Counted from the stretch's first letter, positions 10,509 through 62,745 are shown. The stretch: DNA of 64,000 nt from Eledone cirrhosa (GCA_964016885.1 OZ024740.1:241676001-241740000); one strand, 5' to 3'. The notes: generated by a model from the letters alone, not told the origin. Translations and numbers: made by a program.

Positions 10509-10701
10509 TAACGAAGGAGGTGTGGTAAGGAACCAGATGGACCATAACGCACCAGAGTACTCAATACTTAGGGTAGTAGAGTGGGTAACAGGAAAATGTT
10601 TAACCCCGACGGCATAGCTTAAGCCGTTTCGACGGCTATTTATGGACTGAAATAGCCGTTGAAACGGCTTGAGCTCTGCCGTCGGGGTTAAACATTTTCC
10701 T
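10509..10701 (-). repeat. (TA)n-flanked fold-back module, family P (half hammerhead), copy 1
   Basis: Palindrome 10590-10701; same leader sequence as 30266, 57198 and 19230. Confidence 0.85.
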
Positions 10702-10949
10702 ATATATATATATATATATATATATTGGTAAACGGAATAGAAAATGCTGACAAATTGTTCACAGTTGTAAAATGGTTTAATTAGGAATAAAAGAGTATTA
10801 GTGATTGTATGGGTTAGTATTCAGTTGTGGTTTTAAGTTTTTAAGTTTTCACCGGTTGCGCATTTCTAAATGCTTTTCAAAAATAATTTTGAGATAGAGT
10901 GTCCGTGCTGTTTGCTCTGATCTGTATATATATATATATATATATATAT

Positions 10950-11265
10950 CATAATCATCCGGCGGCCTCAGCCGAAATCGATTCAACAATTGATCTCCAC
11001 GTGGATCATTCGTTCATTGCCGTTGCCAAGTCCTTGATCTCAATGCCAGAATCTCTGGAGTTGACATCGGGATAGGAGAGCTTGCGCCCCCTGTTATTGG
11101 TGACTGCTTGTGTTTTCCAAAGCACTAATGGGGACACAGCCTCATAGGAGGCACGATGGCAGTGGCCAACAAATCTTACTGTCCTTTTACGTACAACGAT
11201 AGATATGCGTGGGAGGCCGGCATATATCTTTCTCACAGTCAGATGTGGCCAGCTTATGTTCTGAA
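10950..11265 (-). mobile_element. RTE-type LINE 3' fragment
   Basis: RKRTVRFVGHCHR...LVLWK...RGRKLSYPD...DLATAM C-terminal motif. Confidence 0.7.
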
Positions 11266-13060
11266 TATATATACATATTTACACACACACACACACACAC
11301 ACATATATATATATATATATACATAACATATATGTGTGTGTGTGTGCATAAACGTGTGCATGTGAGTACGTGCGCGCGTACACCTGCGTGTGTGTGTTTG
11401 CTTCTGTCAATCCTTTGATACCTGAAGTGGTGCGAGGTCCATACAGACGGAATTGAATGTGTATTCTGAGAAGAGAACCTATTTGAAAACAATATTCTTG
11501 TAATCTCTTCTAAAATTAGAGTTGTTATCTATTATATTTTTTTTACATCAAGAAATAAATCATTTTGTCTGTTGAACCAAATCAAAGACATTACATATCC
11601 ATAATATTCTACTAAGGAATAGATACTTGCGAAAGGTTTATTCTCATATAAAAGAAAAGTTCTTAAGACTTATTTTCTTATAAGAGAAAAGTGCGCATGA
11701 GGGGACTAGAACCTAGTCACAGTGAAACATGCACAGTAACTTCCCCAATGAGCGGTGGATTCTAAAGATAATTATTCACCAGTGAAGTATCACACGGATG
11801 ATATATAATAGAAATGTTTTATCTATAATAGAATGTTCTGATTTTGTTATACATTCAATTATACAGTCAATTGTTGTGTGTATAATAAATTATATATCTG
11901 ATTTCGTACTACAGTTAAAGTGTTAAAAGTGTAGAACGTAGCAGAAAATTATCATAGGTTACAAAAAGAGTTATCACATAAATTGCGAAGATGGTGGAGT
12001 TGATAGGATGTTTACATTAGTATTTCATCACCTGGAATGTAATGTGTCCATACTCATTTGCCAACCAGCGCTAGAAGATATGTAGTTCTAAGATGGATAA
12101 TGCGTGTTGGACCTTCGTCGGTTCCGACGACGAGTGTCCCAGTTATTCAAACAAAGTAGCGGACGACTTGTGAAATTAATGTGCAAGTGGCTGAGCATTC
12201 TACAGACACATGCATTCTTAACATATTTTTCATGGGATTCAACGTGACCAGTATATGAAATGGGTAGTCCTTCTCATTTTTGCCAGCTGATTAAACTAGA
12301 GCAAAATGAAATGAAATGCCATGCTCAAACACTCAAGTTTCTGCCTGGAGTTGTACTCCCGATCACACGTCGGACACCATAGCCTATAAACTACGTATCT
12401 TAACACATGTGTCTATAAAAACCGATGAGTGTTTTCTCAGAATACAATGCTTACAGGTACAATGTTCAATTCTTTCCATGTGAGACTGGATATAATCACA
12501 AGATCATAAAGGACTGAACGTACAGACTCTACAATGTATTCATACCAAATATCAACAAAGATGATACATCCCGTAGCATTAGACGTTTCCTCTTCGCAGT
12601 AAGATAATTTATTTCGCTTTGGAATTGTTTGCTACAATCATTATAATTTTTGTTGCAGTTTTCATTCTTTTTAGGACATTCGCAACCATTTCTAGAATTC
12701 TGTTTTTAGATCAACGTAAGGTTTAGAGATCAGTAATTCGTTGGTTTTTATACCCAAATCACGGTATTCTTTTGTCTAGGTTTAATTAAATTCAAACCAC
12801 AGCCCTAACTTTACTTGAGAATGTTATCTTTTTATATTTTCCGTATGTGTTTGATTTCTTATATGATTAACACACATCTCCCTTTAAAAAAACGTGCAAT
12901 AGTTATATGAGATATAACCACAAAGGTCTGAAAGAAAACAGAACTTGGTGGTTATATATAAAAGAATATTCGATAGTGAAGTTATAGATCAGAAAAGTAA
13001 TGTTATTTAAAACCAAATATAAGATGGGTAATAATCGTATTAAATGTTTTAGATACTCAC

Positions 13061-13266
13061 CGATCAACGTAATCTCCCAGAAAGATATAGTTTGCTTTAG
13101 GAGGGTAACCACAGTTGTCGAAATGCCGTAGAAGATCTTCGTACTGTCCGTGAATATCTCCAATAACATTGACTGGAGCTCCAAGTTCCAGTAACATAGG
13201 TTGCTCCAAGAAAATAGCTCTTGAGGCCATGCATAGCTGTCGGATTTGGTGCTCTGGTAATTGGAC
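13061..13266 (-). CDS. PP1-like phosphatase coding exon 2 ([12 protein letters not shown]...[11 protein letters not shown]...[10 protein letters not shown])
   Basis: PPP motifs GDIHG and GDYVDR; acceptor tttccag|GTC, donor CG|gtgagt (phase 2); 206 nt. Confidence 0.97.
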
Positions 13267-13379
13267 CTGGAAATAGAAATACAATAATAAATACCGACTG
13301 GTACCTCAAATATTAGTTTGGAATAAATACAATAAAAGAAATTAATGTGAACGATTAAATGAGAGCATAAGAATCTCAA

Positions 13380-60449: not shown

Positions 60450-60514
60450 TATTTTGTCTGATGAAAGCACACCATAATTTAACTTGGTGTCCTTGAAATA
60501 TGTATAATGAAATA
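60450..60514 (+). ncRNA. Type I hammerhead ribozyme motif
   Basis: tattttgt-CTGATGA-aagcacacca...tggtgtcctt-GAAA-tatgta-TA-atgaaata; followed by about 40 nt and (TA)n. Confidence 0.75.
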
Positions 60515-61502
60515 AATATGGTTTTATAAATATAGTTTCCATTTGTTAATATTGTATATATATATATATATATATATATATGTGTGTGTGTGTGTGTGTG
60601 TGTGTGTGTATATAAGAGTGCGGCGGAATATTTGAATGACTATTAATTCAATCTTGTTTTATACTGAAGATAACATAGATACCAGTAAAATACTAGGGTT
60701 GATTAATTCAACTATAATCTTACCTCTCACTTAAAACTTCCGGTTATTTCTGTATTCTTTAATTCTTTTACTAGTTTCAGTAATCAGAGTACGGCCATCC
60801 TGGGGCACCACCTTAAAGTTGATCATATCGACCTCACTACTTATATATTTCTTTCAAGCCTGGTACATTATTTAATCGACCACTTTTTTTTGTCTCTGCA
60901 GCTCTGCAGGGGCATAAACACAAACACATACACAACTGTAAGCCCATACACAAATGTAAACACAGAGACATACAAAAGCACGCGCGCACCCCCATATATA
61001 TATATATATGTGTGGGGGGGGGGGGGTATGCCTGCGTGCGTCTCTGTGTGTATGTGTGTGTAGTAGAATTCTACGGATTTATGCAGATTCCGTATATAAG
61101 ATGTTACTCTGAAGGCATTGGTTAAGCTGTTGCTGTAGTTAAAGGCACTTACCCAAACTGAAGCCGAAATCACGTGGTTGCGAGCCGGACTTCTTAACTA
61201 CAGAGACATGACTATGTATGTTGATTGTTGTATTGAATTATTTTAATTGATTATCGTTATTCTAGGCTCAAAGCATACACTTGATAATTCCAAGGTCTTT
61301 TTTATTCGATATCTGCCATAGTCGCAACATATGTACTCCTCGCATCAACTTTTTTTTATTCTTTCGCGGGTTAGTGTACGATTGTAGTGATGCTGTGACA
61401 CCGCTTTCAAGAGATTTGGTCGATACATCGATCCCAGTAATCAATTTTTCGAGACTGATACTTATTTTATCAATCTCTATTTGTGAAACAGCTACGTTAC
61501 AT

Positions 61503-61688
61503 AATTGTTTCTACTTTAGGCACAAGGCCACCAATTACCCAGTGCATTACTGGTACTTTATTTTATCGACCCCGTAAGGATGAAAGGCAAAGTCAACCTC
61601 GGCGGGATTTGAACTCAGATCGTAAAGGGACGTAACTATGCTGGAAAGCATGGCGTCCGACTCTCTACTGATACAGCCAATCCACCGC
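61503..61688 (-). mobile_element. tRNA-headed SINE
   Basis: Full-length copy of the dominant SINE. Confidence 0.85.
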
Positions 61689-62554
61689 TACGTTACATAC
61701 TATAAACACTTAGTAAATGTAAATACATACACGCATACACACGTACACGACGTGCTTACGCACAATTTCTGTCTACTAAACCCGCCTCTGATGACATTGT
61801 TCCCCACGAAGATATAATAAATGACACTTACCTAAGGTGCCACGCAGTGGGACTGTATCCAGAACCATGTGGTTGCGAAGCGAACTCTTTACGCACACAA
61901 GCATGTCTGCATCTTAATATTTTCTTATATTAAAATCCTTACCACTTTACCAAACACATTATTTTCACACAGTATATTGTACTGTGTTATGATTGCATAT
62001 ATATTTTTGCACCTCGGTCTCAGCTAGTATAATATTATCAATAATCAGCATCAGTAATTTTACCATCACACACTCGACCCTATCTACTATTTTCACCCCT
62101 AAACCTATCTATCGATATATATCTCCAATTATTCACTCTTAAAAAACAGAACGAGGACACTTTTTAATTTCCTTCAGATGTTCTTTCATTATTTTTCCTC
62201 TCCTTCTCAACGTTTAATTATTTTAAGCACATCTATCTATTTATCAATATATTCATCTATTCCTATGTCTGATTAATTCTCTCAATTAATCAATCCTTTG
62301 CTCCCGTACACTCCAATTCCTAATCTCCAATTCTATTCTCTCTCTCTCTCTCTCTCTCTCTCTCTCTCTCTCTCTCTCTCTCTCTCTCTCTCTCTCTCTC
62401 TCTCTCTCTCTCTCTCTCACTCTATATATATATATATATATATATATATATATATATATATATATGCAAAAGTTCTATTTAAATTGTTGGGATACGACAA
62501 GCAAATATTTTTATAACTGATATAAAGCACTCAACAAGTATTTGGAGTAAACAT

Positions 62555-62745
62555 ACGATATTAATAAATGGAAACTATATTTATAAAACCATATTTATTT
62601 TATTATACATATTTCAAGGACACCACGTTAAATTATGGTGTGCTTTCATCAGACAAAATATAATATAGATCATGGTGTCCTTGAAATATGTATAATAAAA
62701 TAAATATGGTTTTATAAATATAGTTTCCATTTGTTAATATCGTAT
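62555..62745. repeat. Fold-back module around the HHR
   Basis: 62555-62625 is inverted at 62673-62745; ends in (TA)n. Confidence 0.9.
62596..62660 (-). ncRNA. Type I hammerhead ribozyme motif (same family as 60450)
   Basis: tattttgt-CTGATGA-aagcacacca...tggtgtcctt-GAAA-tatgta-TA-ataaaata; 8-bp stem I with one G-U. Confidence 0.78.

Follow-up and report, generated by a model that had tools for sequence, protein, structure and literature searches.

Endonuclease-bearing Penelope-like elements (PLEs) insert as inverted, 5'-truncated copies with a tail of 30-40 bases at one end and with (TA)n tracts as targets (Craig et al. 2021, PMC8557442), and the origin of their tandem and inverted insertions and of the one-sided tail is named in that paper as an open question. 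Tails on one inverted arm, together with palindromes at the junctions, have been explained as self-priming (Arkhipova et al. 2013, PMC3846280); in the available portions of these two papers, the accounts offered are endonuclease resolution or self-priming on an antisense template. We analyzed modules of this kind in a 64,000-nucleotide stretch of the Eledone cirrhosa genome (C1:241676001-241740000; "the window" is this whole stretch), which lies within a 3.0-Gb AT-rich genome rich in TA tracts and holds seven sequence families, A to G, of hammerhead-type modules. At a probability of roughly two in three, these modules are 5'-truncated insertions of TA-targeting PLEs, together with hammerhead repeats that lack an open reading frame (ORF) and were likely copied by PLEs, and their hairpins arose by priming from both target strands on one donor RNA at two fixed sites.

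Several other systems bear on this interpretation. Metazoan PLE hammerheads occur as opposite-strand pairs 100-700 bp apart, attributed to truncated PLEs, and include the U3-A8 core (Cervera and De la Pena 2014, PMC4209133). Retrozymes have been proposed as non-autonomous PLE derivatives, in arguments that rest on co-occurrence and phylogeny and that also mention local satellite-like amplification (PMC7229834; bioRxiv 10.64898/2026.07.22.740005, as far as the available text of both goes). In vitro, the Anolis Poseidon element PAc has both target strands cut and extended, with starts at two internal sites that bound the tail and with uncleaved RNA as the template (Frangieh et al. 2024, PMC11167929). 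In L1 twin priming, the second target strand primes on the same RNA and an inversion results (Ostertag and Kazazian 2001, as described in PMC9148063).

For PLEs, the literature already describes inverted arms, TA targets, a tail on one side and hammerheads on opposite strands. What we add is two fixed 3' ends in six families, their one-of-each pairing, arms derived from a single donor, and arms consisting of the tail only. Because the structures had already been described, the gain is mechanistic rather than a new class of element: the pairing rule, the same-donor arms and the tail-only arms turn the open question of PLE insertion into a specific prediction. In the literature searched, which covered few subscription journals and no supplements, we found no paper proposing twin priming for PLEs; supplements could bear on tail lengths in Hydra elements.

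Two fixed 3' ends, paired one of each

Families A to E and G, for which ends were mapped (F lay outside the mapping), each terminate at two fixed 3' ends, one proximal and one distal, that are 68-115 bases apart. The tail between them measures 77 bases in A, 115 in B, about 108 in C, about 88 in D, 72 in E and about 68 in G. In A to E the proximal end lies 17-141 bases beyond the hammerhead cleavage site, and nine of the ten fixed ends of these families continue as TAT inside the element, the tenth as TAAT. Matches to proximal ends were flanked by TA in 180 of 216 cases, with overlapping loci retained in the count, compared with 9% of random positions in the fetched loci. This is the enrichment of TA flanks that an earlier first-pass annotation, made from the window's sequence, had proposed as a check on its own reading.

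The arms of an inverted insertion are asymmetric, with the 68-115-base tail on one arm and absent from the other. A distal end was paired with a proximal end at all 16 A loci picked by protein search (16/16) and at 7/7 protein-linked D loci, and further at 14/15 loci in B, 9/10 in D, 7/8 in C and 6/6 resolved loci in E, giving 59 of 62 inverted insertions in this first set. A held-out test of 40 further loci contained 16 resolvable inversions, all of which followed the rule (16/16; P=1.5e-5 at one half), with the caveat that in one of them a D arm stopped about 13 bases before reaching the proximal site; the remainder comprised four unresolved loci and 20 without a terminal inversion. Overall, a tailed arm was joined to a tail-less one in 75 of 78 inverted insertions. 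Ten non-inverted A copies in the held-out set used the two ends 6:4, so that independent choice of ends would give about half mixed pairs.

Each search scored its best 40-150 matches, and the counts given here are of scored loci rather than genome-wide. Kept out of the 78 were 30 A loci picked by DNA search (29 with a proximal partner) and 20 G loci, because their query forced a distal anchor. Also set aside were duplicate matches to the two arms of one insertion; L054 (the same insertion as L044), L053 (the same composite junction) and L056; the broken-ended E loci L134, L142, L143, L148 and L149; and L193, L250, L264, L279 and L284 with 4/10 of the first D parents, in which an end was broken or lay outside the stretch, or there was no inversion.

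Like the PLE insertion unit (PMC8557442, PMC3846280), the insertions described here are 5'-truncated, form partial tandems, bear at their 5' end an inverted copy that is itself 5'-truncated, often have a tail at only one end, show palindromes at the junction and target microsatellites. They differ from it in tail length (68-115 bases here, 30-40 in the published text available) and in the standing of the tail, which here goes beyond an optional feature, given the 75 of 78 inversions that combine a tailed and a tail-less arm.

A separate regularity was seen in the D loci L063-L092, where many arms, single ones included, end 266-277 bases from the distal end. This end falls on a GC-rich palindrome and is possibly a stall, an annealing site or the 5' end of the RNA.

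Both arms from one donor

Arms within a locus differed at 1.7 positions per 1900 bases, compared with 11.8 between loci (13 loci). As the within-locus difference is far below that between loci, both arms of a young locus share a donor. Of 22 young loci, 9 had arms of which neither was contained in the other. Five families contributed eight insertions whose distal arm stopped at or before the proximal site; such an arm consists of tail only, and the insertion is an inversion without a repeat. Non-contained arms and tail-only arms rule out, at those loci, a first strand folding back on itself, and the first-pass reading of the modules as fold-backs does not account for the arms on its own. Since turn points differ between loci, each hairpin was made at insertion.

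Modules in the window

Self-comparison of the window revealed head-to-head arms at all six places (6/6) where the first-pass annotation had reported inverted repeats abutting TA tracts, and at further ones; arms of these modules differ by 2-18%. The unfolded copies that it placed at 56.6 and 60.4 kb are present as single-arm copies. It had overlooked the family E insertion, both G fragments and a fourth A copy. Several sequence families were indeed found to share one architecture. The families number seven in all: A (10.5, 19.3, 30.3 and 57.2 kb), B (16.1-16.9 kb), C (31.3-31.8 kb), D (60.1-60.6 and 62.5-62.7 kb), E (15.1-16.0 kb), F (55.5-56.7 kb) and G (29.1 and 54.9 kb). The features are as follows.

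10511-10700: family A module; distal (tailed) arm 10511-10651 head to head with proximal (tail-less) arm 10649-10700; 3' hammerhead half only; TA tracts 10491-10510 and 10701-10725
15096-16017: family E, whose unit of about 603 bp lacks an ORF; arms up to 15508 (distal) and 15506-16017 (proximal)
about 15732-15886, plus: family E hammerhead with a stem II insert of about 115 bases; GAAA mutated in the window copy
16107-16883: family B insertion with TA on both sides, from a 522-bp tandem unit without an ORF; arms 16107-16551 (proximal) and 16552-16883 (distal, tailed)
16158-16239, minus: complete type I hammerhead of the family B left arm, with palindromic stem III
16639-16720, plus: complete type I hammerhead of the family B right arm; minimum-energy fold a three-way junction
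19233-19356, plus: family A copy, older and with one arm, whose distal end meets TA tract 19357-19388
29124-29436, plus: family G, by sequence the 3' terminus of a PLE that has a GIY-YIG and a Neptune-type linker; distal end at TA
29179-29221: family G hammerhead within the preceding copy
30266-30455: family A module; distal arm 30266-30407, proximal arm 30404-30455; 3' hammerhead half only; TA on both sides
30480-30539, minus: short, separate family A arm with a proximal-site end, beyond TA tract 30456-30479
31339-31836: older family C insertion, from an element of about 1.8 kb that lacks an ORF; arms 31339-31594 (distal) and 31599-31836 (proximal)
about 31500-31559, minus, and 31719-31778, plus: damaged family C hammerheads
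54888-54996, plus: second family G fragment; proximal-site end against a TA tract
55488-56700, plus: family F, an old Hydra-type remnant with a single arm; thumb fragment 55516-55674, then 3' untranslated region
56586-56690: family F hammerhead within the preceding copy
57198-57358: older family A module; arms 57198-57327 (distal) and 57336-57358 (proximal, short)
57770-59206, minus: decayed Hydra-type reverse transcriptase (RT), thumb and endonuclease remnant, 31-56% amino-acid identity to the family A ORF
60093-60554, plus: single family D arm; proximal-site end against TA tract 60555-60581; complete hammerhead 60450-60514
62466-62742: family D module with TA on both sides; the distal arm, 62466-62672, holds a complete hammerhead at 62596-62660 (minus)
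62673-62742: proximal arm of the same family D module; 3' hammerhead half only

The observation behind the first-pass annotation mostly holds, and the elements themselves belong to known kinds. It was right to read the modules as PLE termini that carry type I hammerheads and have inserted into (TA)n. The alternative it offered, ORF-less retrozyme-like units, suits B, E and probably C; it does not suit A, D, F or G. Nor does a hairpin constitute a mini-element of its own: A and D are autonomous Hydra-type PLEs truncated to their ends, and the longer copies of F and G run into PLE coding DNA.

Mobilization had been tentatively attributed to PLEs like those in the window. The PLE at 8700-10170 (minus), between TA tracts 7641-7735 and 10491-10510, has an RT and a GIY-YIG domain and is frameshifted; a further copy is present in L157. 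The motif descriptors used found no hammerhead in it, and because its DNA matches none of the module families, a mobilizing role for it is unsupported. Parentage of any module is likewise unsupported for the remnant at 57770-59206.

Parent elements

By sequence, families A and D are 5'-truncated ends derived from two Hydra-type PLEs, of which other copies have intact ORFs. In long A copies, an endonuclease frame is reached after about 1.3 kb of untranslated DNA, and the parent has an intact frame of 784 codons in a 3531-bp unit that is also found in tandem, where the hammerhead lies between the stop codon and the following start. At least 150 A copies were scored at 98-100% identity, many of them with the 784-codon frame open (protein search), and family A is a young, high-copy expansion in the genome. 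The D parent is a related element with a 743-codon frame in a unit of about 3951 bases.

Both parents have a single ORF (784 and 743 codons) with a telomerase-like RT, and the model of the A protein (predicted local distance difference test score, pLDDT, 93.6) gave telomerase RT (TERT) as its best fold match (E 1.6e-8). A C-terminal GIY-YIG region without CCHH and with CxxC and CxH is present in both at the motif level only, read from sequence as VIY...YIG, CNLC and CKH in A and as VVY...YVG, CDLC and CRH in D; no profile or fold match was obtained for this domain. The DKT motif reads SDKTG in A and SDKTN in D, the CxCX5C linker CNCPDRSIC and CNCRNKSNC, respectively, and the RWK position is RWR in both. 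Pfam returned no RT or GIY-YIG match for either Hydra-type ORF or for 20 of the 120 listed relatives, and a sequence search of solved structures reached only E 1.6 at best. Relatives of about 700 amino acids numbered 2216.

With the Hydra clade as described in section 11 of PMC8557442, A and D share the single ORF, the C-terminal endonuclease without CCHH, DKT, CxCX5C, CxxC, CxH, the hammerhead and the (TA)n targets. They differ from it in unit size (3531 and about 3951 bases, against a published size of generally <3 kb that is not a strict limit) and in RWR instead of RWK, and family A differs further in being young and high-copy, with a U3-A8 core and a long stem III. With its intact ORF, its many near-identical copies and the start sites mapped here, this young Hydra-type element is ready for use in the in vitro assay already established for a PLE.

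The family D protein (L158:7259-8179, L226:3172-5400) contains an asparagine-rich stretch in the thumb-linker region that recalls the N-rich inserts reported for rotifer Penelope elements (PMC3846280, available portion).

Family F lies downstream of decayed Hydra-type coding DNA, and its longer copies reach PLE coding DNA. Family G is, as judged from motifs, the 3' end of a PLE with a Neptune-type linker: L304 reads C-X4-C-xx-C for the linker, then C...C, YVG and H...H, in agreement with the CX2-5CxxC linker and the CCHH-bearing C-terminal GIY-YIG of Neptune-type PLEs, and longer G copies show RT similarity upstream. At L032:5050-7290 (minus), a 747-codon PLE RT frame of another type adjoins a family A insertion.

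At L174-L175 (G000:C1:437199000-437216000), four tandem A units alternate at one site (1=3, 2=4), which would suit a two-unit circular template or later duplication. Direct repeats of A differed at 0-6 positions within a locus and 2-21 between loci, per 800 bases (6 loci); this closeness fits a circular template and also a recent tandem donor.

ORF-less families

Family B is a 522-bp tandem unit with a GC content of 35% and a longest stop-free frame of 59 codons, and L044, L053 and L062 hold at least two consecutive units, each with a complete type I hammerhead. It is therefore tandem, non-coding and under 45% GC, as non-LTR (long terminal repeat) retrozymes are. Family E has a unit of about 603 bp and a longest stop-free frame of 63 codons, and occurs only as partial tandems (the tail of the preceding unit plus one unit) among 25 loci and four longer stretches. 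Family C extends about 1.8 kb, and no parent ORF or coding homology was found in 20 long copies or five longer stretches.

B, and E in part, thus resemble non-LTR retrozymes as non-coding, AT-rich tandem units with a type I hammerhead. Their monomers of 522 and about 603 bp fall outside the published size of about 300-390 bp (PMC7229834, a descriptive rather than strict range), and they are dispersed as one to three units with the fixed ends, tails and inverted arms of PLE insertions. That B and E carry this PLE-type scar suggests that PLEs move retrozyme-like repeats and bears on the question of who moves animal retrozymes. Differences among B units (4.0 within and 4.6 between loci per 220 bases, nine loci) were uninformative on rolling circle.

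Family B sequence (16107-16883) was matched by more than 2000 contigs in each of two organism A runs (X1, X2, X4 set) and by one in an organism B run. This contrast hints at a lineage-specific burst; contigs show presence, not absence.

Hammerhead ribozymes

A strict type I hammerhead descriptor found five complete motifs in the window, at 16645 (plus), 16233 (minus), 56591 (plus), 60458 (plus) and 62652 (minus), compared with a mean of 0.025 and a maximum of 1 in 40 dinucleotide shuffles of the window. No hammerhead was among the best 150 of 158 Rfam matches (E<=1); the matches listed were only microRNA-like matches to microsatellites, none of them at the gathering score.

A type I core with three stems and an open stem I is complete for B, D and F in the window and for A, C, E and G in other copies. 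The sequences of stems I, II and III differ from family to family, yet pair in every family. The minimum-energy folds of A and B are three-way junctions, and stem III or its loop is self-complementary in A to E. The parent hammerhead of family A has the U3-A8 core variant and a long stem III, and stem II carries inserts of 65-115 bases in E and F. Type I architecture, a palindromic or short stem III and U3-A8 are common to the metazoan PLE hammerheads of PMC4209133; relative to the available text of that paper, the stem II inserts of E and F and the folding of A as a monomer are differences.

In 48 distinct D-type copies, 96.7% of cells were paired and five stem II pairs had changed on both sides, the covariation that the first-pass annotation had asked for. 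The covariation score was reached by none of 500 shuffles and slid controls paired 37-55%, a test that related rows can inflate.

The first-pass claim that many modules contain the full motif held for the five motifs above. The A modules at 10.6, 30.3 and 57.3 kb lack the CTGANGA half. What they retain runs from the 3' strand of stem II through GAAA and stem III to the cleavage site and the stem I 3' strand; holding only the 3' half, they are unable to self-cleave in cis. Consistent with this, both arms of short A modules stop 131-160 bases from the end in 24/26, and the 5' half of the core starts at 175. The hammerheads reported at 31.4-31.8 kb are visible in outline and both damaged: in the window copies of family C, the core of the right arm reads CTGAACA and stem I of the left arm is mismatched. 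Every insert extends across the hammerhead cleavage site, so the template was either uncut or re-ligated there. Elsewhere in the window, 41702-41804 contains CTGATGA and GAAAC on the minus strand with no convincing stem I.

Origin of the inverted arms

Parents for A and D, two fixed ends in A to E and G, one-of-each pairing, same-donor arms, tail-only arms and TA flanks are the observations that any account of the hairpins has to accommodate. Twin priming of one RNA from both nicked strands fits them better than self-fold-back. In the reaction we propose, the GIY-YIG domain would nick both strands of the (TA)n tract, and each nicked 3' end would anneal by 2-4 bases to UA in an RNA that is uncut or re-ligated at its hammerhead, and be extended, one from the distal site and the other from the proximal site. 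If the trailing (distal) copy halted at the proximal site, a tail-only arm and a plain inversion would result; if it displaced the leading copy and ran on, the product would be an inverted repeat. The two complementary DNA (cDNA) ends would then join via short overlaps or palindromes, followed by fill-in. In a more specific form, which we consider an even bet, this twin priming is programmed: one ribonucleoprotein nicks both (TA)n strands and makes two cDNAs from two fixed UA sites 3' of the hammerhead, and the ORF-less hammerhead repeats keep the two-site signal and are inserted likewise, as more-than-unit copies. The tail, the inverted repeat and the plain inversion would then be outcomes of one reaction, and there would be direct genomic evidence for animal retrozymes as passengers of PLEs, comparable to short interspersed nuclear elements (SINEs).

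Such a reaction differs from L1 twin priming, in which the second site is internal and unfixed; here both sites are fixed near the 3' end, and the arms usually duplicate the end. Duplication is not known to accompany the inversions of L1. In PAc, as far as the available text goes, there is no strand preference between the start sites, and the two sites are not tied to one inverted product, whereas here the two are used one each, both at UA.

Several observations weigh against dual-strand priming. PAc initiates without target homology (PMC11167929), unlike the TA match that our scheme would need. The pairing rule has exceptions: both arms are proximal in L106, one arm ends at an intermediate site in L068/L089 and in L034, an older module beside L021 has both arms distal, and the partners of G distal anchors end at the proximal site in 5/7 and fall short in 2/7. 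Copies of B and D are too alike to yield the same-donor signal, which gene conversion from one arm to the other could also produce. No ORF was identified as a partner of B, C or E, whose 3' regions have nothing but low complexity in common with those of A and D. Finally, arm lengths are within 100 bases of each other at 6/22 long A loci, the two arms of short A modules stop in the same narrow interval (24/26, above), and junctions often overlap by 1-15 bases or sit on palindromes. Because fold-back, too, gives near-equal arms and junction overlaps, the overlapping part may often be a fold-back copy; it may have been made by strand displacement, fold-back or both, which the data do not separate.

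These last features are what a hybrid account would explain, in which a short palindrome lets the first-strand cDNA fold back and serve as its own template for the overlap, and a second priming on the RNA or an endonuclease cut at the proximal site sets the ends only. Published interpretations lean the same way, with palindromes at inverted junctions taken as self-priming (PMC3846280) and the tail attributed to endonuclease resolution (PMC8557442), each in its available portion. The eight tail-only insertions have no inverted repeat at all, however; the tail cannot derive from copying the proximal arm where that arm is the longer, and several loci would need loops of 1-2.5 kb. We therefore regard the hybrid as unlikely, with something like a one-in-five claim on the data left to it in our judgment. 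Loss of same-end hairpins from the genome or assembly, after both kinds of pairing had formed, is far less probable: perfect palindromes are unstable, and one distal/distal and one proximal/proximal case do survive, but the surviving mixed pairs are already inverted repeats of 2-3 kb at 99-100% identity, which a 77-base one-sided extension is not expected to protect.

Comparably improbable is that each hairpin is a mobile mini-element inserting whole at TA sites, whether similar to miniature inverted-repeat transposable elements (MITEs) or arising from pre-folded RNA. Short A modules are very numerous, similar in size and flanked by TA on both sides, and one composite B junction recurs in L044, L053 and L054. 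Against this, L044 and L054 share flanks and are one insertion, turn points vary among loci, the fixed tail makes the arms unequal, and identical ends bound insertions of 2-7 kb with intact ORFs. A MITE or other DNA transposon was rejected on the unequal arms, the variable turn points and the continuity with RT ORFs. Least credible of all is an artefactual origin, through assembly or fold-back of long reads, or an origin by replication slippage at TA palindromes. The window does contain TA-centred and single-copy hairpins without hammerheads (41188-41445, 40873-40982 and 53458-53900), and none of the listed contigs of three public runs spanned its B insertion. Yet the arms differ by 2-18%, end at family-specific fixed sites and bear a tail on one side only, and public contigs have loose ends that turn into TA tracts exactly at the proximal site, 16775.

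Other features of the window

The hairpin at 53458-53900 is a single-copy structure of 443 bases with arms 96-97% complementary; it is unrelated to the modules and has no hammerhead. At 41188-41445 and 40873-40982 the arms are mirrored about a central TA tract, again without hammerheads, and are possibly repair or replication turns at a TA palindrome. Further short hairpins lie at 34273-34378, 41702-41804 and 39236-39267. Decayed copies of non-LTR retrotransposons with RT and zinc-finger remnants occupy 3330-6456, 21546-26988 and 47602-49467.

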